Shown here piece by piece: positions 14,625 through 41,874 of a stretch of DNA of 64,000 nucleotides. The stretch is from the sequence record OZ346228.1, one strand, 5' to 3'. Every line of letters begins with the position of its first letter. Position 1 is the first letter of the stretch. This DNA comes from a phage. Made by a program: the position numbers and the translations under genes. The notes under the pieces are model-generated. The model was not told the origin of the DNA. It saw only the letters and a program-made list of their open reading frames with translations, and made no database searches.

Positions 14625-14810
14625 ATGAAAACCACTACCTTTAATTTTGATAATGCAGACTTTTCTTTTTCTGATGTCAAGAACTGCCGCCGTGATCGTG
14701 GATTTTACAAGGCTTATAATCTGGTGGGCCTGGACGATGACAATAATTTGCACGAAGTAGCTGAGATCCAGCTTGACAGATTGGACGGGAAAGTACTAAA
14801 AACTTATTGA
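14625..14810 (+). CDS. hypothetical protein
   Basis: RBS AAGAGG. Confidence 0.55.
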   Translation: MKTTTFNFDNADFSFSDVKNCRRDRGFYKAYNLVGLDDDNNLHEVAEIQLDRLDGKVLKTY

Positions 14811-14811
14811 G

Positions 14812-14858
14812 TTTATTTTTAGATGGCCTTGACACCAGGGCCATCAATAAAGTAAACT
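14812..14858 (+). repeat. Conserved post-stop intergenic element, copy 1
   Basis: TTATTTTTAGATGGCCTTGACACCAGGGCCATCAATAAAGTAAAC; 7-bp stem GATGGCC/GGCCATC around TTGACA. Confidence 0.6.
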
Positions 14859-14890
14859 AACCACAGTTGAGCGGAAAAGGAGGCTTAAAG

Positions 14891-15010
14891 ATGAGCACTA
14901 CACGCCAGCACACAAAGGTAACCATCATCGTTTGCATCATTGGGTACATCCTGGCGCAAATGTTGATGGGTAGCGCCAACGGTGTCGCAAAATTTTTCTT
15001 AAACTTTTAA
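14891..15010 (+). CDS. small hydrophobic peptide (39 aa)
   Basis: RBS AAAGGAGG; predicted TM helix VTIIVCIIGYILAQMLMG; below the ORF-track cutoff. Confidence 0.4.
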   Translation: MSTTRQHTKVTIIVCIIGYILAQMLMGSANGVAKFFLNF

Positions 15011-15038
15011 TTGACAAGCTAACTTAAATCGATATAAT
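15011..15038 (+). promoter_or_regulatory. sigma70 consensus promoter
   Basis: TTGACA, 16-nt spacer, TATAAT. Confidence 0.65.
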
Positions 15039-15089
15039 AAGCACATAAACGGGAAAACTTCCCAGAACACACAAAAGGAGAAAAACACC

Positions 15090-15431
15090 ATGACTACTAT
15101 GACCGCCTCAGAAAAAGCTATGCAGATCGCTGAACTGAAAAAACAGATCGCAGACCTTGAGAATAAGATCGATAACTTTGAAATCGACGAGGACAAGTAC
15201 GACGAAAACTATGATGAATGGTTAGACGAGATCTACGGCGAAATTATGATCGGAAACATTTCTTTTCTTCCGTCGCGTATCCTCAAGGAGCTAGATCCTA
15301 TCGCTTACCGCTGCGGATTTAGCGACTACATCGACAGCCTGGATATTGAGGACGATGAAGAATACCAGGAATTACAGACAGAGTTAGAAGAAGCAAAAGA
15401 AGAGCTTGCGGAGCTGGAAGAAAACGAGTAA
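15090..15431 (+). CDS. highly acidic protein (candidate DNA mimic)
   Basis: RBS AAAGGAG; about 36 of 113 residues D/E; first gene behind the consensus promoter. Confidence 0.65.
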   Translation: MTTMTASEKAMQIAELKKQIADLENKIDNFEIDEDKYDENYDEWLDEIYGEIMIGNISFLPSRILKELDPIAYRCGFSDYIDSLDIEDDEEYQELQTELEEAKEELAELEENE

Positions 15432-15432
15432 G

Positions 15433-15479
15433 CTTATTTTTAGATGGCCTTGACACCAGGGCCATCAATAAAGTAAACT
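15433..15479 (+). repeat. Conserved post-stop intergenic element, copy 2
   Basis: Near-identical to 14812-14858. Confidence 0.6.
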
Positions 15480-15520
15480 TTATACTGTTAACACTGAACT
15501 AATGCATAGGAGTTAAAACC

Positions 15521-15766
15521 ATGGCAGCACTAATCACCAAATATTATGCCCCTACCAACACCAAAAGCGCCCGTATCATGGTAAAAGGCTTCGGACGTAA
15601 AAAGGTGTACACCTGGGATTATGCCTTAGACACGGAAGACAACTACACCAACGCAATGACCGATTTTATTAATGAACTAAATAAGCAGATCTTGACAAGT
15701 TATAAAGTGACCGATATTGCTTATATAGGTGAAGGCGGGATCTGTTTTGTAGGCATTGTGAAATAG
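15521..15766 (+). CDS. hypothetical protein
   Basis: RBS/start ATAGGAGTTAAAACCATGGC, identical 20-mer to that of ORF 19764. Confidence 0.55.
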   Translation: MAALITKYYAPTNTKSARIMVKGFGRKKVYTWDYALDTEDNYTNAMTDFINELNKQILTSYKVTDIAYIGEGGICFVGIVK

Positions 15767-15767
15767 T

Positions 15768-15812
15768 TATTTTTTCGGTGGTCCTGGTTGCAGGGCCATC
15801 TATAAAGATAAT
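15768..15812 (+). repeat. Diverged copy of the post-stop intergenic element
   Basis: TTATTTTTTCGGTGGTCCTGGTTGCAGGGCCATCTATAAAGATAA. Confidence 0.3.
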
Positions 15813-31963: not shown

Positions 31964-32434
31964 CTACTTAAATAGTAGTTCAAAATAGTGCAAAATTAAC
32001 AGAAGTTGAACTACACCTAGTGCAACGGCGAGTATGTTAATCTTAGAATCGAAAAACTTCTTAACTTTTACTCTAAAAGGTTCCTTAATGTCCTTTACGA
32101 TCCTATCTATAGATGACCTCATATCTCTGATTACCATCCTGAACATTAAAGACGGATGCTCCCCCATCTCCGTAACGGAATCGAAAACATACTCTCTTCG
32201 GTCATAAGGGCCGCCAGCTCTGCGTATTAACCTCTCCACAGAGACCTCGAACGTCACACCTGTAACGTAATCATCTATAACAAGTCGTGACGGGTCTTTA
32301 CCTTTACTATCAAGAGGTATCAAAGTTATCTTTCCAGATTTTGTTAAAATTTCCCCTTTTTCAAGCAAGGTGTACCAATGCTCTCTGCCAAGACTGTTGA
32401 GGCACGTTTTTACATATTTAACAAACATCGTCAC
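31964..32434 (-). CDS. hypothetical protein with C-terminal TM helix
   Basis: C-terminal ILAVALGVVQLLLILHYF. Confidence 0.5.
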   Translation of the reverse strand: MTMFVKYVKTCLNSLGREHWYTLLEKGEILTKSGKITLIPLDSKGKDPSRLVIDDYVTGVTFEVSVERLIRRAGGPYDRREYVFDSVTEMGEHPSLMFRMVIRDMRSSIDRIVKDIKEPFRVKVKKFFDSKINILAVALGVVQLLLILHYFELLFK

Positions 32435-34564: not shown

Positions 34565-34849
34565 CTACCAGGTTACTGTCAAGTAGGCAACCGTATTATT
34601 TTTCTCTGGGGAGATGCCAACAACATCTACCTGCAGACCTCCTGCCCTTAAATCTCCAACAATGTGCGGGAAGTAATCTGAGAGATGCGAGGGTAGATTT
34701 ATCGAAAATCCGCACCCCAGAAAGCCTGCTAACGCTTTATTTTGTATCTCCCCTACAATCGCATCATAAATGGAGTTAAGCTCGTCAGGGAGCGTTACAG
34801 GACGTTTTAGCGCTAACTGGTGTAATTTGTCCTTAGCACTCATTTTCAT
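34565..34849 (-). CDS. hypothetical protein
   Basis: ATGA overlap with methyltransferase stop. Confidence 0.5.
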   Translation of the reverse strand: MKMSAKDKLHQLALKRPVTLPDELNSIYDAIVGEIQNKALAGFLGCGFSINLPSHLSDYFPHIVGDLRAGGLQVDVVGISPEKNNTVAYLTVTW

Positions 34850-35379
34850 TTCAGGTCTACCTCTGGTGGTGCCAACCACATAAATGGCGGCAAGCCTAAA
34901 CGGTTTTTCTTATCCCACACAAAATATGCATATGCTTGCCCGTCAGTTCTGCCATTTGATTGAAAAGATGGACGCTTAGATATTGTGATCACAGTGGTAG
35001 GTGCATTATCAAGCCACCATTCAAATCTGGCTTTGCTTTCCAGAAAATTAAGACGCAAAAGCATAATAACTACGTCAGCATCTTTCAACGCCTTGTCTAC
35101 AAACTCACGAGCCAAACTGTATGGTGGGTTGGTGATAATACAGTCAACATGGTTGTATTCTGTATTCAGATAGTCAACACCTTCTTGGATTTCTCCCCAT
35201 GCAGATCCTAACGGCATACGGGAGTAGAACACACCTGAGGCACTATTCCTGCAAGGCTCTAAGTAGGTCCAGTCTTCTGGGAACGGAATAAGGTCATACA
35301 GCCCTTCTGCACACCACTCCGGTGTCACATACTCATCGTAGGCGTTACGTTGTTCATCAGGTTTTCGAGCACAAGTCAT
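34846..35379 (-). CDS. DNA N6-adenine methyltransferase (small Dam-like)
   Basis: Catalytic motif IITNPPY. Confidence 0.7.
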   Translation of the reverse strand: MTCARKPDEQRNAYDEYVTPEWCAEGLYDLIPFPEDWTYLEPCRNSASGVFYSRMPLGSAWGEIQEGVDYLNTEYNHVDCIITNPPYSLAREFVDKALKDADVVIMLLRLNFLESKARFEWWLDNAPTTVITISKRPSFQSNGRTDGQAYAYFVWDKKNRLGLPPFMWLAPPEVDLK

Positions 35380-35396
35380 GCAAATCTCCAGATCAT

Positions 35397-35425
35397 AAAA
35401 GCCCTCCGAAGAGGGCTTTAGAATT
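35397..35425 (-). terminator. stem-loop/putative terminator between protease and MTase
   Basis: AAAGCCCTC-TTCG-GAGGGCTTT then TTTAT on - strand. Confidence 0.4.
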
Positions 35426-35430
35426 AATGT

Positions 35431-36480
35431 TTAAGCTTCTTCGACAATTCCTGCACCCAGGATTTTTTCATTGAGCTCTTTTGCTGTTTTAATAATATTG
35501 TCCACCAGACGCTTGCGAGTCTTATCTTTTACCTTAACCTCTTCACCGCCGTTCAGGGTTGTCTTCAATTGGGACAGAATGTCTTGAAGTTCAACGACAG
35601 AGAATCGCTGCAGATCTTCTGAGGTAATCTCGCCTAAGGCAATCTTAACGGTCTCACCACTTTCCATCTGCAGGTTCAGGAACACAGTGTGAACATCACC
35701 TTTCGAACCACCCGCTTTTGCAGATTCAACAGCATGAACTAGCTCATCTAAAGAGGTGCACTGGTGAATCTCCGGAAGACCTGCTTCACCTAGCACACCT
35801 TCTTCATCACCTTTTGCCAAAAGCTTTTTAGGTTTTTGTCCGTTCTGGATGCGTTGTATGTTGCCTTCATCCAGAATGATAGCTCCAGTTCGAGCTGCCA
35901 GCTCCTCTCCGTCCAACCACACTTCGCCACCCGCTGTGATGGATGCGATCTCATCTTCTGTCAGCACCCAACCGTAGTATTTTTCGATCAGGCGTTCGAA
36001 ACGTTTTTTCCAGTAGCTGACCTGAGTATTCATGTTCACACCATTGCCATAAGTGCCGCCTTGATAGTAGTGGAACATAAACTCTGTGTCCGGAGCCACA
36101 GTGCGTTCTTTGCAACCCAGCCATAGGATTGTTCCAGCAGAGCAGCACATCCCTTCAGCATGTGCAACAACGCTTGCCTGAGACTCGCGGAATGCCTGTA
36201 GATAAGCCATTGCAATGTGCACGCAACCCCCAGGGCTATTGATGATCACACGAATGCTTTCTTCCGGCTGAGCCATACGGATCGTCTGCAGACGAGACAT
36301 ATGATCCTGCAGGTCCTCCAAATCGTCGATATAAAGAACGTGGTCAACAACAGGTGTTGGGTAGCTGTATGTTTCCATAATACCACCCGGCATACCAAAC
36401 ATTTTATTACTCATAGGTTCGAAACCGTTCTGTTTTTCTTTCATGCCGTGTACCATGGTTCTGCGAGGTGTTAAATTCAT
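35431..36480 (-). CDS. ClpP-family (S14) serine protease with C-terminal extension
   Basis: RVIINSPGGCV, MCCSAGT (Ser), FMFHYYQG (His) parallel ClpP INSPGG..SMGA..MIHQP; extra ~150 aa C-terminal. Confidence 0.7.
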   Translation of the reverse strand: MNLTPRRTMVHGMKEKQNGFEPMSNKMFGMPGGIMETYSYPTPVVDHVLYIDDLEDLQDHMSRLQTIRMAQPEESIRVIINSPGGCVHIAMAYLQAFRESQASVVAHAEGMCCSAGTILWLGCKERTVAPDTEFMFHYYQGGTYGNGVNMNTQVSYWKKRFERLIEKYYGWVLTEDEIASITAGGEVWLDGEELAARTGAIILDEGNIQRIQNGQKPKKLLAKGDEEGVLGEAGLPEIHQCTSLDELVHAVESAKAGGSKGDVHTVFLNLQMESGETVKIALGEITSEDLQRFSVVELQDILSQLKTTLNGGEEVKVKDKTRKRLVDNIIKTAKELNEKILGAGIVEEA

Positions 36481-36540: not shown

Positions 36541-36852
36541 TTATTTAGCAATCACTATGGAATACTTACGATTGTCAGAAGCATCACAACTCAATGATTG
36601 CCAGTCTACCACATACCACGTATCATTGTCAACAATTACTTTATCGCCTGTTCTGTAGCAAGTGCTGCTTTCAATAATTCGAGACTCGATAAAGAATCTG
36701 TGTCGGCGCTCACGTAGCAACGCTAAGTTAATTATATTACCACCGCTGTCCTTGGTCCACACATTCTTGGATCCCTTATTTGCCAAAATTGTCTCGCCGT
36801 TATAGACAAACAGGCAGTATATTTTATTCAGTTTCTCTTGTATTGTAGCCAT
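36541..36852 (-). CDS. hypothetical protein
   Basis: Co-oriented ORF. Confidence 0.5.
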   Translation of the reverse strand: MATIQEKLNKIYCLFVYNGETILANKGSKNVWTKDSGGNIINLALLRERRHRFFIESRIIESSTCYRTGDKVIVDNDTWYVVDWQSLSCDASDNRKYSIVIAK

Positions 36853-36953
36853 ACTGTCCTTCTCTCTGTTTTGTCCGATAATAATATCTAAAGCTTACCT
36901 ATTTGTCAACAACTGTTTTAGATATTTAAGGGTGGAATAACCACCCTTCTGTA

Positions 36954-37742
36954 TTACTCGGAAACAGGGGTCCAAATATGATTTGCACGATCCTCAATAA
37001 GATTGAGTGCGATCTGACGACCCAACCCAGAACGAACGACATCGTCTGGACTATCAAAGCTGATCATTCCAACCTCAGGATCTGGATGACGAGTAAAGAA
37101 ATCCGTCACCCATGCAAGGCCAGATTTACCAGGGATGTCACGTTGGCTATTATCACCCATAATTACAAGGGTGGCTTGATCAGAGATCCTTGTGATAATT
37201 GACAACATTTCTTCAGGGTTAGTTTGCTGTGCCTCGTCAATCAGGACAAAGCATCGCTCATCGAAACTACGACCACGAATGCTTTCAACTTCACAAATCT
37301 CGATACGGCTGTTCTGACCGTCTCCCAGCATTGCGGCAAAAGCACCTTTGCCAACACGACGACAAATCGTGTCCATCATGCTTCGAAGATAGGGCCACAG
37401 TTTCTGCATTGCATTTCCAGGTTTAAATCCTGAAGTCTTTCCTGTCTGAACGTAAGGACGTGCAACAATAATCTTATCAATCTCGTTCTTACGCAGAAGA
37501 TCACCTGCATATGCAGATGCCATGAATGTCTTACCGGATCCAAACACACCGTTTACAATAATAATCTTACGTGACCCTAGATAATCAAGATACTTTTGCT
37601 GCTTCTTATTCATTGGTCTGAGAGCTGGAGCGGTGTGCTCTCTTTCGTCAGCAAATTTCTCAGCAGCCTTACGCAGGCGATCAGATTTGCGAGCCTCTCT
37701 AGCTTCATCACGCATGCGTTTTGTTTCTTTAGCTCGACCCAT
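36954..37742 (-). CDS. phoH: PhoH-like ATPase
   Basis: Walker A VFGSGKTFMA; PYLRSMMD; LIDEAQQT; VIMGDNSQRD. Confidence 0.85.
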   Translation of the reverse strand: MGRAKETKRMRDEAREARKSDRLRKAAEKFADEREHTAPALRPMNKKQQKYLDYLGSRKIIIVNGVFGSGKTFMASAYAGDLLRKNEIDKIIVARPYVQTGKTSGFKPGNAMQKLWPYLRSMMDTICRRVGKGAFAAMLGDGQNSRIEICEVESIRGRSFDERCFVLIDEAQQTNPEEMLSIITRISDQATLVIMGDNSQRDIPGKSGLAWVTDFFTRHPDPEVGMISFDSPDDVVRSGLGRQIALNLIEDRANHIWTPVSE

Positions 37743-38241: not shown

Positions 38242-38303
38242 TTGGCACCTCCTCTGCTTTCATTACGGCAATTATAACCAACTCAACAAAGCTTTGTCAA
38301 CAA

Positions 38304-38777
38304 CTAGTCTACCTGAACCCAACCGCCTGATACTTTTTTAAACATTCTTTGGTTATCACTGCCTCGGAACGGTTTCTTGGTTGGTAAATCTTTTACATAC
38401 TTACCGTCAATGATGATATCAGCCAGTTTAATAACATCACTAGAGATATGGTCAAATGTGAACCCAGTATATACAAGAATAGTTTTCTTGTCACCAAATT
38501 TTTCCTTAATTTTCTCCATCAGGCTAATAATATCTGGCTCATTATAGTATGCTAAGGGTTCTCCACCCAGTAGAGAGATACCGCACACAGACGGGTTATC
38601 TAAATCTGACAAGATTTTTTGCAAGTCTTCTTCAGTGAACTTCCTCCCCTTATCTTTTGACCAAAATGCCTGATTAAAGCAACCAGGGCAAGCGTGTGGG
38701 CACCCAGATACCCACAAGGCAGTTCTAATACCTGGTCCTTCGGTGTAAGATATTTCTGTGTATCCAGCAATGTTCAT
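38304..38777 (-). CDS. nrdG: anaerobic ribonucleotide reductase activating protein
   Basis: Radical-SAM-like CPHACPGC cluster; directly downstream of nrdD. Confidence 0.75.
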   Translation of the reverse strand: MNIAGYTEISYTEGPGIRTALWVSGCPHACPGCFNQAFWSKDKGRKFTEEDLQKILSDLDNPSVCGISLLGGEPLAYYNEPDIISLMEKIKEKFGDKKTILVYTGFTFDHISSDVIKLADIIIDGKYVKDLPTKKPFRGSDNQRMFKKVSGGWVQVD

Positions 38778-38953: not shown

Positions 38954-40216
38954 TCAGCAACCACAACTTCCGTAGTGCTTAACTCGCTCGATAACTTCCG
39001 CTTGCTTACCTTTATTGTAAGGACGGGAGTTAGGACTGGAAAGGTATCCAGACACACGTCGAATTACACTGATCGTTCCCTCTTCATGGTTTCCACACTC
39101 TGGGCATACAAAGCCTTTAGCTGTTGCACTGAACTCACCAGAGAAACCACACTTGAGACATTTATCCACAGGTTGGTTAATACCAAAATACATAATGTGT
39201 TTATACCCGAAGTCAACAAGAGCCTCTAAAGCATCCAGGTTGTTTTTCAGGTTAGGTGTTTCTACGTATCCGATGTTGCCACCAGAGGATATCATAGCAA
39301 AACCTTCTTCATACTCCCACTTATCAAAAGGAGAGCTATTGATCCATACTGGCTGATGGAAACTGTTGGTGAGATATTCATGCTCGTGCTTCAACACTTC
39401 AGGATATTCACGATCCAGACAGGTTGCAGCTTTATAGCATAGACTCTCAGAAGGGGTGCCGTACAAACTAAACGCTAGTCTACTTTTCTTCTTGTATCGC
39501 TCACAAGCATCTCTCATGTGCTGAAGTATTCCAAGAGCTAAAGCCTTGTCACCCTCTCTGCCCAAAATCTGACAGGTTTCATACACACCAATATACCCAA
39601 TACTGATGGAAGCGTACCCGTCATAGAAGAGTTTATCAATACTCTCTTCAGGATCCAGGCGAGCAAGAGCGCCTTCACACCACATGATAGGGTTCTGCCC
39701 TGCCTTAGTGCCTTTCAGACGGTTAACCCTTACAAGGTGAGCTTCATATGCCAAATCCAGATACTCGTCAAGAACGGAAAAGAAATCAACACCTTCCGTC
39801 TTAGCTTTTGCCGCAATCATTGGCAGGTTAAGACTAACAACACCCAAGTTGAATCTGCCGAGGTATTTCTCCTCACCTGTTTCCAAGTCATTGTATTTGC
39901 TAAGAAAACTCCGGCAACCCATGCTCGTTACTTTACCATCTGTCGAGCCTGTCACTTTACGATTTAGTGGAACAGAAACAAAGTCAGGATAAATCCGCTC
40001 TGCAGAGCATTCCAGAGCTAATCGTTTCAAATCATAGTTAGGATCTCCAGGGTTCATGTTGACACCCTCTTCTAGGAAGAACAACACTTTAGGGAACACA
40101 GGTGTGATACGTTCTTCACCAAGACCCATTTTGTGGACTTTCAAGTAGTTTTTGGTAATCATTCTACCAAAGACTGAGGTGTCCAGACCTAAACTTAATG
40201 TGATGAATGGAGTCTG
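38954..40216 (-). CDS. nrdD: anaerobic ribonucleotide reductase NrdD, exon 2
   Basis: QTPFITLSLG.. continues from exon 1; C-terminal CPECG zinc site and glycyl-radical motif RRVSGYL. Confidence 0.8.
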   Translation of the reverse strand, partial: QTPFITLSLGLDTSVFGRMITKNYLKVHKMGLGEERITPVFPKVLFFLEEGVNMNPGDPNYDLKRLALECSAERIYPDFVSVPLNRKVTGSTDGKVTSMGCRSFLSKYNDLETGEEKYLGRFNLGVVSLNLPMIAAKAKTEGVDFFSVLDEYLDLAYEAHLVRVNRLKGTKAGQNPIMWCEGALARLDPEESIDKLFYDGYASISIGYIGVYETCQILGREGDKALALGILQHMRDACERYKKKSRLAFSLYGTPSESLCYKAATCLDREYPEVLKHEHEYLTNSFHQPVWINSSPFDKWEYEEGFAMISSGGNIGYVETPNLKNNLDALEALVDFGYKHIMYFGINQPVDKCLKCGFSGEFSATAKGFVCPECGNHEEGTISVIRRVSGYLSSPNSRPYNKGKQAEVIERVKHYGSCGC

Positions 40217-41013
40217 CTGTCTCCTCCCTGTGTTTCCACAGGGCCAGACTATCTCTTACTCTACTTCAATAAGATAATAACCCTTTATTGTGAGATGCTT
40301 ACCTTCGGCATTTCCTTCGATAGCCCTATGAACGTTACCTACGTTCAAATTTAAGGCTTTTGCACAGGCATAGAGTGAAGGATATTCACCCACCAAGGTT
40401 TTACCTTTGTATGCCTGCACTTTCCTATAGCACTTACCTGGACAAAGTCCTGTTCGGAAAGCATGTCTCTTATTATCTTCCGGCAAAACCCACTCTAGGT
40501 TAGACGGATGATCATTCAATGTATTGCCATCTTTATGATTCACTTCCCAGTTTTCAGGGTCTTCTGGGACATCCGGCAAACAATACAAGGCAACAATCCT
40601 TGAGGTTTGGATTCGAATCTTTTTACCTTTGTGGTTGAAAGAGTACATATAACGGCGTTTAACATGCTTGTTACCTTTTCCATAACCTCCCCACAATATT
40701 GGGTGTAGCATTCCACGTTTTCCGTATACGTTTCCAACCTCATCAATCACATAGTTTGATTCTTCACCATTAAGAATGATCTTTTTCATAGAGCCTCTCC
40801 ATTTCGAAGTTAGTATTTCAACTAACCCCTACACTACTTGGTTCAGAAATGTTTGTCAAGCATTTCTGCCTTTCGTTAGTCGTTACAACCGTTCCAACTC
40901 CTGTAAGAACTAGTCACGGGATTGGCATAGCTTTCGCCTTAGCGTTCCCCGTTAGCCGGATTTACCGACCCCTCTTATGAGGTTAGGAGAGTTTTACAAC
41001 GGCCAGTTTGTTA
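40217..41013 (-). mobile_element. Group I intron in nrdD
   Basis: On - strand: exon 1 ends on U; AACGGGGAAC, CAATCCCGUG, CGACUAACG (P7 5'), GAGAUAGUCUGG (P7 3'), P9 hairpin CCCUGUG-GAAA-CACAGGG, terminal G. Confidence 0.75.
40256..40789 (-). CDS. HNH homing endonuclease, intron-encoded
   Basis: HNH motif EVNHKDGNTLNDHPSNLEW; inside nrdD intron. Confidence 0.8.
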   Translation of the reverse strand: MKKIILNGEESNYVIDEVGNVYGKRGMLHPILWGGYGKGNKHVKRRYMYSFNHKGKKIRIQTSRIVALYCLPDVPEDPENWEVNHKDGNTLNDHPSNLEWVLPEDNKRHAFRTGLCPGKCYRKVQAYKGKTLVGEYPSLYACAKALNLNVGNVHRAIEGNAEGKHLTIKGYYLIEVE

Positions 41014-41874
41014 ACCGTTGACAGAAGTTAACGTGTTGATTTGATAGAGCAAAGTCTGCATGCTGTCAAATACGTCTTTATCTGTCATTTGCATTGCAAC
41101 AGTTTCAGCATCCGGCAACCAATGTTCCTGGCAAAATTTAAGGTTCTTCTCATAGGTTGCTTCAGCATACTGTGCCAGATAATGATCAATATGGCTCATA
41201 GTCTGACCACCATATTGAGCACTAGCTACCGCACTAGAGATTTGGCTAAGGATTGTTGTTGCAACCCCTATTGACTTCGGCTTACTGACATGGGCGTTAC
41301 CAATGTTGAATCCGTTTTCCAACATATCTGGATAATTTACCAAACAACAGTTTGTTAACGGACTGATCAAGTAGTCAAGATCATGCACATGGATGAATCC
41401 TTTATTGTGCTCTTCGGAGACACGGTCTGGCAGGATCTGTGTTGATGCAAGGTGTTTGCTAAGAATACCTGCAAGCAGGTCGCGATGAGTGTGTACATGA
41501 TTAGTAGGCTTATTTGCGTTTTCTTTTGTAAATTCATCACAAGTTCGATCCAAGAAGCCACTAATATCTGCAAGCAGTTTTCCACCTGCCTCTCTGTTAT
41601 TATCTCTTGTCTGTCTATACTGGATGTATTCTCTGGCTGCACATTTTAAACCCATATCCATAAGAGCATCTTCAACAAGGATATGGATATTTTTTACAGA
41701 GATCGTGCACTGGTCGGTTGGTAGATTGTTAGCAACAACTTCATTAACCGCGCAGGCGATCCGGTAAGCTTCTTCTTCAGTATGTCCAGACTCAAGTAAG
41801 GCGGACTCTGCCGCCTTGATCACCTTAATTCCGTTATAGAACTCTTCTCTACCGTCCCGTTTTACAACTTTCAC
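41014..41874 (-). CDS. nrdD: anaerobic ribonucleotide reductase NrdD, exon 1
   Basis: ATP-cone-like start MKVVKRDGREEFYNGIKV; GFIHVHDLDY..TNCCLVNYPDMLENGF; ends ..NTLTSVNG at splice site. Confidence 0.8.

Follow-up and report, generated by a model that had tools for sequence, protein, structure and literature searches.

What is a ClpP-like protease doing in a phage genome when its gene stands among replication and nucleotide-metabolism genes, at a distance from those of the head? The question is raised by a locus in a 64,000-nucleotide stretch of phage DNA (sequence record OZ346228.1; hereafter the window), for which a preliminary description had proposed a ClpP-family enzyme acting in host or regulatory proteolysis and not in prohead maturation. 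Over its whole length the window shows 100% identity to Escherichia phage magaca (Vequintavirus). The protease gene is magaca_39 (100% identical to MN850612.1, positions 14757-15806) and is equivalent to gp122 of phage rV5, long labeled "ClpP ATP-dependent protease subunit" (Kropinski et al. 2013, PMC3606486, Table S3). It is carried at 90-100% nucleotide identity by 119 phage records, where it goes under the names "ATP-dependent protease subunit" and "ClpP-like protease" or is listed as hypothetical. Both the gene and its annotation were already in the databases.

Literature searches found no functional study of a phage-encoded ClpP, the gene goes unmentioned in the BASEL paper, and a PADLOC run on the protease and the small ORF upstream of it gave no match to a defense system. 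The function proposed for the protein is inferred from context. New here are its linkage to PhoH, an orphan C-terminal domain, and evidence against its being either a canonical ClpP subunit or the head protease. The reading that we favor, with a probability of about 0.65, is that of an active, non-structural ClpP-fold protease encoded in a conserved PhoH-linked module, which would act in the cytoplasm and probably without host ClpX or ClpA.

Results

The protein has a ClpP fold and conserved catalytic residues

The gene, its domains and its neighbors are listed in Table 1; the ATG is preceded, at a distance of about 7 nt, by an AAGGA Shine-Dalgarno sequence. The ClpP-like nature of the protein, as originally proposed, was borne out by Pfam, PHROG, PDB-profile, AlphaFold and Foldseek matches. 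The Pfam profile CLP_protease (PF00574) matched with an E-value of 2.3e-12 and a score of 47.6 bits (gathering threshold, 20.2), in a partial alignment covering profile positions 32-143 of 182, and the PDB matches of the family profile were ClpP chains only (best score, 52 bits). An AlphaFold model built from 20 homologs had pLDDT values of 85-93 across residues 46-215 and was disordered at residues 1-42 and in much of 216-263, and a Foldseek comparison with the PDB gave a probability of 1.0, target TM-scores of 0.64-0.73 and about 20% identity to ClpP, the best 50 of 1,081 matches (E <= 0.001) all being ClpP. The match to the ClpP superfamily is therefore statistically solid, although distant, and not a product of chance.

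Table 1. Features of the protease locus, in window coordinates.
Feature	Position	Strand	Evidence
Terminator (Rho-independent), GCCCTCTTCGGAGGGC-TTTTAT, 15 nt past the protease stop	35395..35416	-	sequence
DNA methyltransferase-like gene, 177 aa, downstream of the protease	34846..35379	-	PHROG 799 at 5.5e-67
ClpP-like serine protease gene, 349 aa	35431..36480	-	ATG start; Pfam, PHROG and NCBIfam matches
N-terminal region, residues 1-45, predicted disordered	36346..36480	-	pLDDT about 40
ClpP-fold catalytic domain, residues 46-215	35836..36345	-	AlphaFold, Foldseek, alignments
Ser114 codon	36139-36141	-	alignments
His137 codon	36070-36072	-	alignments
Glu186 codon, position of ClpP Asp171	35923-35925	-	alignments
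Linker, residues 216-262, mostly disordered	35695..35835	-	pLDDT 41-59
Orphan C-terminal domain, residues 263-349	35434..35694	-	beta-hairpin and three helices
Small upstream ORF, 103 aa, rV5 gp121, PHROG 5456	36541..36852	-	ORF list, PHROG match
Extended -10-like element TGGTAATATAAT, inside the 103-aa ORF	36731..36742	-	pattern search, promoter scan
Promoter-like site (sigma70-type), TTGACA-17-TATTAT, 11/12 matches	36881..36909	-	scan and sequence
PhoH-like P-loop ATPase gene, 262 aa, rV5 gp120	36954..37742	-	Pfam PhoH, 3.6e-47

The three S14 motifs singled out in the preliminary description were located at residues 80-85 (INSPGG), 111-117 (MCCSAGT, containing Ser114) and 134-141 (FMFHYYQG, containing His137). 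In the alignments, Ser114 and His137 matched ClpP Ser97 and His122, and both were invariant among 20 close and 11 very distant homologs; Tyr169 and Glu177 are also invariant in the family alignment. Glu186 occupies the position of ClpP Asp171, where D, E or Q is found across the family, in a segment whose alignment may be off by one residue. The adjacent Gly185 aligns to ClpP Arg170, the neighbor of Asp171 and an oligomerization sensor. Since several relatives have Gln at the third catalytic position, activity may need a partner. The handle helix (residues 150-169) and the Gly-rich strand (QGGTYGNG, compared with LGGYQGQA in ClpP) are also kept, and the residues present suggest that the protease is probably active. 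An inactive pseudo-protease was considered and rejected, because the Ser and His are invariant family-wide.

The closest outside relatives are head-maturation proteases

PHROG 5410 matched residues 24-345 with an E-value of 7.7e-155, and PHROG 1827 matched at 1.3e-39. With a profile (A4) built from 11 diverse family members, the members scored at least 174 bits, including P0001, which is 99% identical to the window protein; the next matches, at 92 and then 76 bits, were ClpP-related prohead proteases and protease-capsid fusion proteins. Among the NCBIfam models, NF045542 ("Clp_rel_HeadMat") reached 60.3 of the 120 bits set as its cutoff, NF045540, for protease/capsid fusions, gave 51 bits, and the cellular ClpP models gave 33-39 bits against cutoffs of 228-309, with 33 bits against 308.6 for the ClpP equivalog TIGR00493. 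Scores below cutoff place the protease in neither curated family. The PHROG head-maturation families (1684, 94, 2976 and 133) matched at 1e-14 to 1e-21. Judged by profile score, the nearest outside relatives are thus ClpP-related head-maturation proteases and not cellular ClpP, and the protein belongs to a distinct and widespread "auxiliary" ClpP-like family of phages (PHROGs 5410 and 1827), with members in rV5-like phages, ICP1, Otagovirus, Pakpunavirus, Barbavirus, T4-like vibriophages and others. Relatives of the protease were detected by tblastn in more than 1,000 phage records. The broad family alignment contained no conserved stretch.

This proximity is one argument for a different reading, in which the protein is the real, or a second, head-maturation protease, directed to the procapsid by its C-terminal domain and degrading a 325-aa scaffold. 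Its architecture is another, as a protease followed by a C-terminal extension is the usual build of protease-scaffold fusions, exemplified by T1-like phages (bioRxiv 10.1101/2023.05.21.541620). We consider this reading unlikely, for reasons that come from the C-terminal domain, the head module, the genomic contexts and the promoters.

The docking pocket for host ClpX and ClpA is replaced

The name in use suggests instead that the protein is a proteolytic subunit of the ClpP type and, once docked to ClpX or ClpA of the host, makes up an ATP-dependent protease of altered specificity. Such a function would agree with the conserved fold, triad, handle helix and Gly-rich strand, and the name itself is used in more than 100 records. 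However, of the residues that we take to form the pocket of E. coli ClpP for the IGF/LGF loops of ClpX and ClpA (Y60, Y62, F82, I90, M92, F112, L114 and L189), all eight are replaced in the alignment of the phage protein, by R77, I79, E99, H107, E109, T127, A129 and E226, respectively. In the phage family all eight pocket positions count as polar or charged, I79 and A129 of the window protein included, whereas a control bacterial ClpP in the same alignment was hydrophobic at 8 of 8.

The N-terminal region is likewise unlike that of ClpP. It holds a conserved FGM-PG ... YSYP motif, of which F28, G29, Y40 and P41 are kept among rV5-like relatives in the alignment, and it neither aligned with the N-terminus of E. 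coli ClpP nor offered a counterpart to its axial-loop sequence. The low score with TIGR00493 also speaks against a canonical subunit. As the docking residues are all replaced, the label "ATP-dependent Clp subunit" is doubtful; the inherited name "ATP-dependent Clp protease subunit" is not supported, and we hold a partnership with ClpX or ClpA to be very improbable.

The C-terminal extension ends in an orphan domain

The long C-terminal extension reported previously was confirmed, with 134 aa beyond the end of the ClpP fold near residue 215. Its first part is a linker, poorly conserved and variable in length and sequence, with a single predicted helix at residues 244-256. The remainder forms a separate fold (about residues 263-343) in the AlphaFold model, with pLDDT values of 77-94 when modeled alone; F293, E297 and R322 are invariant, and the domain is not an extended coiled coil. 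Foldseek gave no match to it, and an exhaustive profile search of 1.84 billion representatives detected it nowhere outside the protease family, otherwise yielding two fragments and one leucine-rich-repeat protein, a false positive.

The domain is present only in rV5-like lineages; most family members have 180-250 aa and no extension, and those of ICP1 and Vibrio phage K412 carry other extensions. A capsid-targeting role for it is possible. On the other hand, it showed no similarity to the phage's own scaffold, and this, together with its absence from most of the family, argues against the head-maturation reading. An internal start nested in the gene, from which a separate C-terminal "scaffold" would be made as in lambda C/Nu3, was also considered and rejected, because no Shine-Dalgarno sequence precedes Met272 and the domain does not resemble the scaffold.

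The head module encodes a protease candidate of its own

The gene had been described as far from any capsid genes, and in the 100%-identical magaca genome terminase, portal and capsid genes indeed start 30-36 kb away, on the other strand. The head module found there does not adjoin the ClpP-like gene and has a protease candidate of its own. Its genes specify, in order, the terminase, the portal (Portal_Mu), a protein of 139 aa, a coiled-coil protein of 325 aa, a decoration protein and the major capsid protein (Phage_cap_E). The 139-aa protein, which is rV5 gp63 and magaca_93 and the counterpart of ICP1 gp125, matched Pfam PF14550 (Peptidase_S78_2, "putative phage serine protease XkdF") at 8.7e-18 and 65 bits against a cutoff of 24, and its homologs are present in 594 phage records. 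Four very divergent sequences were inspected, those of the window phage, ICP1, Otagovirus phiPsa374 and Arthrobacter phage Sonali: in all four the gene lies between the portal and capsid-protein genes, and a DxHG His and a GxS Ser are invariant. Such residues fit a His/Ser protease of the HK97 type, as known for S78 proteases. A PDB sequence search with the S78_2 protein gave no match.

GenBank records from the ICP1 group name the gp125-type gene "capsid protease", and many other records mislabel it "DNA methyltransferase", following PHROG 1530. ICP1 gp125 was regarded as the likely procapsid protease by the authors of the ICP1 study (PMC7567579). The same split between a head-module S78_2 gene and a separate ClpP-like gene is found in ICP1 and Otagovirus. 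The rV5 S78_2 protein, a putative protease to judge from its sequence match, has only 139 aa and no obvious capsid-targeting extension, a point against the favored reading.

Mass spectrometry of rV5 virions identified 19 proteins, among which gp122, gp63 and the scaffold-like gp62 were absent (PMC3606486). The absence of gp122 fits a non-structural enzyme, but a prohead protease would also be expected to be missing from mature virions. The absence of gp62 implies that the scaffold is removed somehow, which would suit a scaffold-degrading gp122. In the same study, the first capsid-protein peptide starts at residue 5, after Arg4 (PMC3606486), so the rV5 capsid protein is not trimmed at its N-terminus, an argument against a head-maturation role for the ClpP-like enzyme.

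Prohead proteases encoded far from the capsid genes do occur, phiKZ gp175 being an example that lends the displaced arrangement a precedent. Against that reading, the canonical slot in the head module is already taken by the S78_2 protease with its invariant His and Ser, which is kept wherever the ClpP-like family coexists with the same head type. Because the head gene cluster has its own protease, the ClpP-like protein is almost certainly not the capsid-maturation enzyme, and the S78_2 protein is likely the true one. The exclusion of a prohead protease in the preliminary description is therefore well supported by the separate S78_2 protease and the rV5 virion data, as well as by genomic context, promoter type and ICP1 timing.

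The gene is linked to phoH in most of the contexts analyzed

Besides DNA polymerase, primase/helicase and many small early genes, the window contains a minus-strand block with genes for RNA ligase, Sir2-like proteins, DNA ligase, nucleases, methyltransferases, thymidylate synthase, nrdAB, nrdDG and PhoH, and after these the ClpP-like gene and a series of small ORFs. The window thus holds only replication, nucleotide-metabolism and small early genes, in agreement with the setting initially claimed. Two GenBank labels in this region were rejected: magaca_44, a "putative minor capsid protein" that would have been a nearby head gene, is NrdG, and magaca_40, a "PhoH-like protein", is an unrelated small ORF.

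The PhoH gene is followed in the window by one small ORF (103 aa) and then by the protease. Neighbors were analyzed in 17 genomic contexts, found in part by a profile protein search and contig look-ups, and in 14 of these a PhoH-like gene lies upstream on the same strand with 0-3 ORFs between. The 14 are Vequintavirus, Seunavirus, Mydovirus, ICP1, K412 (where the neighbor is a PIN-PhoH fusion), Otagovirus, Barbavirus, six metagenomic contigs, and Alteromonas phage V22, whose ortholog is CDS-147 (PMC7289586). Overlaps of 4-8 nt between start and stop codons occur in three of them. The three contexts with no adjacent PhoH gene are Pakpunavirus, the T4-like Vibrio phage phi-ST2, in which the family member lies between frd and uvsX, and Klebsiella phage Roth50, in which it follows a dNMP kinase gene. 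Head genes adjoined the protease gene in none of the 17, and its presence in the replication cluster of phi-ST2 is a further point against a displaced head protease. A methyltransferase gene often follows that of the protease, as in the window; the others with this order are Mydovirus, Seunavirus, Barbavirus, L012 and L016.

Such a linkage could mean that the ClpP-like peptidase works in a single machine with the PhoH-like ATPase, either as an ATP-dependent protease specific to phages or as a proteolysis module coupled to nucleic acids, to which the C-terminal domain of rV5-like phages, possibly a helix-extended-helix fold, would add nucleic-acid or partner binding. However, PhoH was found in about 2,400 phage records, many of them lacking the protease, and as it is far more widespread than the protease, the pairing is frequent but not obligatory, as Pakpunavirus, phi-ST2 and Roth50 also illustrate. 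Shared myovirus ancestry could preserve the gene order in the absence of physical interaction, proteins of the PhoH family are associated with RNA metabolism rather than with protein unfolding, and in the window a promoter-like site separates PhoH from the protease operon. A joint machine therefore seems improbable to us, to about the same degree as a head-maturation role. It refines the favored explanation and does not compete with it, and our estimates for the different readings are not meant to sum to one.

The predicted promoter type and the ICP1 temporal class are not those of head genes

The 103-aa ORF upstream of the protease, weak homologs of which precede the protease in Mydovirus and Seunavirus, is apparently co-transcribed with it. 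The promoter-like site upstream of this ORF is P121 of rV5 (PMC3606486), and the terminator, a GC-rich hairpin followed by a T tract, is identical to rV5 t122 (PMC3606486, Table S4), the two signals bracketing gp121-gp122 in rV5 (PMC3606486). A weak hairpin was also noticed by eye between the PhoH gene and the protease operon.

The putative "late" promoter motif of rV5, TGGTAAAATA-like, is listed for the structural region only (PMC3606486, Table S4). About 250 nt upstream of the protease start codon, the element TGGTAATATAAT differs from TGGTAAAATA by one mismatch, and this late-promoter-like sequence is a caveat to expression apart from the head genes. On the other hand, the RNA-seq data of ICP1 assign gp193-gp211, which include thymidylate synthase, Dam, nrdAB, PhoH (gp208) and the ClpP-like protein (gp211), to a "middle-late" class and the head genes gp122-128 to the "late" class. 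In ICP1, however, the period of the "middle-late" class and that of head assembly overlap, which weakens the contrast. Both the promoter type and the ICP1 temporal class are unlike those of head genes, and the timing in the window phage may be similar to that in ICP1.

Discussion

Taken together, these results lead us to prefer a non-structural protease over a head enzyme or a Clp subunit. As we envisage it, one small ORF and the protease gene would be transcribed from their own sigma70-type promoter to their own terminator, as a unit within the replication and nucleotide-metabolism region, downstream of the PhoH-like ATPase gene. The product would be a ClpP-fold serine peptidase, presumably catalytically competent through Ser114, His137 and Glu186, which by analogy with ClpP probably assembles into ring-shaped oligomers that enclose the active sites. 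Host ClpX or ClpA is probably not docked, and access and choice of substrate may depend instead on the protein's own N- and C-terminal extensions or on a phage partner. The enzyme would work in the cytoplasm of the infected cell and not inside the procapsid, on host or phage proteins, and the host or regulatory proteolysis originally suggested is a plausible role.

The distinction matters because members of this family are routinely labeled "ClpP ATP-dependent protease subunit" or "head maturation protease", and the evidence suggests that neither name fits. A conserved protease, probably active to judge from its residues, would thus exist outside the capsid pathway in many large virulent phages, including therapy candidates (rV5-like phages and Pakpunavirus) and the cholera phage ICP1, and could reshape the host or phage proteome. 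The tight linkage to phoH also provides a handle on the long-standing puzzle of phage PhoH; if a PhoH-ClpP-like unit proved true, it would give a first concrete biochemical role to this widely used viral marker.

A 2026 preprint (10.64898/2026.03.04.709575) reports a CBASS system that senses phage protease activity and restricts Vequintavirinae, its specificity differing from the one for T4 gp21; in its available part the Vequintavirinae protease responsible is not named. Vequintavirinae hold two candidates for the sensed protease, of which the ClpP-like gene is one, and it is a possibility that the free cytoplasmic ClpP-like protease, and not the head protease, is the trigger.

Comparison with known systems

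With E. coli ClpP (S14, PF00574, PDB 1TYF) the phage protein has in common the fold, the NSPGG oxyanion motif, the Ser and His and the handle helix. It differs from bacterial ClpP in being only about 20% identical, in having Glu (Gln in some relatives) in place of Asp171, in its extra 45-aa N-terminal and 134-aa C-terminal extensions, and in lacking both a ClpP-type axial loop and the conserved docking pocket. Listeria monocytogenes ClpP1, which has Asn for the catalytic Asp and is active only in a hetero-complex with ClpP2, may be compared with those relatives in which Gln takes the equivalent place, which in the window protein is occupied by Glu.

The ClpP-related head-maturation proteases, the best-scoring outside families, are likewise phage-encoded and often carry C-terminal extensions. 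In contrast to them, the window protein reaches half of the family cutoff, is not fused to a scaffold or capsid protein, and is encoded outside the head module by a gene of another predicted promoter class. Its orthologs rV5 gp122, ICP1 gp211 and V22 CDS-147 are of the same family and occupy the same neighborhood, usually with PhoH upstream, and further orthologs, named "ATP-dependent protease", occur in Otagovirus, Pakpunavirus and Barbavirus. The S78/XkdF prohead protease (PF14550) is a serine protease of the same genome but of an unrelated fold family, and unlike the ClpP-like gene, its gene sits between portal and scaffold and is expressed late in ICP1.

Gene neighborhood of the ClpP-like protease

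Directly upstream of the ClpP-like gene, and on the same strand, lies a gene encoding a PhoH-like ATPase in 14 of the 17 phage contexts examined, among them the window itself and the loci L003, L004, L007, L008 and L010-L017. The paired genes overlap by 4-8 nt in three contexts, and the gene downstream of the ClpP-like gene often encodes a DNA methyltransferase. No comment on this PhoH/ClpP-like linkage was found in the literature.

A 103-aa ORF separates the two genes in the window. Its GenBank name was rejected, as a Pfam search detected no PhoH domain or other match and the sequence belongs instead to PHROG 5456. Because weak homologues in Mydovirus and Seunavirus are also located upstream of the protease gene, the ORF may be a conserved companion of the ClpP-like protease.

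Features within and outside the window (L002, the stretch carrying the head module of the identical magaca genome)
Feature	Position	Strand	Remarks
rV5 gp133 homologue	31964-32434	-	PHROG 7821 'virion structural protein'
103-aa ORF	36541-36852	-	GenBank 'PhoH-like protein'; PHROG 5456, function unknown
Extended -10-like element TGGTAATATAAT	36731-36742	-	within 103-aa ORF
PhoH-like ATPase gene	36954-37742	-	upstream partner of ClpP-like gene (35431-36480, -)
Sigma70 promoter TTGACA-18-TATAAT	38271-38300	-	perfect consensus match, 12/12
nrdG	38304-38777	-	GenBank 'putative minor capsid protein'; PHROG 626 (1.9e-54); rV5 gp117
nrdD, split	38954-41874	-	GenBank magaca_46 to magaca_48; ORFs 38954-40162 and 41011-41874
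HNH homing endonuclease gene	40256-40789		between nrdD ORFs
Peptidase_S78_2 (XkdF-type) gene, magaca_93	L002:13808-14227		outside window; head module, portal-scaffold interval

Capsid, virion and protease labels

The 'putative minor capsid protein' near the protease gene is NrdG, which activates the anaerobic ribonucleotide reductase, and the gene for the large subunit of that enzyme, nrdD, is annotated in the identical genome as two ORFs flanking a homing endonuclease gene. The gp133 homologue, for which no Pfam match was found, sits 3 kb past the protease gene in the downstream direction, amid small early/middle genes and far from the structural module; rV5 gp133 was reported to be among the predominant virion proteins (PMC3606486).

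We argue from sequence that the magaca_93 product is the head protease, since its DxHG and GxS residues are invariant. Many GenBank and RefSeq records label this S78_2 gene 'DNA methyltransferase', 'DNA-binding protein', 'minor tail protein' or hypothetical, mislabels that apparently derive from PHROG 1530. Database naming also touches the ClpP-like gene, which is present in 18 records that bear the name 'Campylobacter phage' and give C. jejuni as host; in two listed of these, A140 and A135, the protein is 99% identical to the E. coli rV5-like version, and the name apparently reflects contaminated or mislabelled entries.

Strand organization and promoter-like elements

The sign of the GC skew changes near 24 kb and near 60 kb of the window, in agreement with the points where blocks of genes alternate between the plus and minus strands. 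The element TGGTAATATAAT differs from the rV5 'late' promoter motif by one mismatch and could drive a putative second, later transcript of the protease gene. The predicted sigma70 promoter, just 3' of nrdG and before two small ORFs and the PhoH-like gene, corresponds to rV5 promoter P118.
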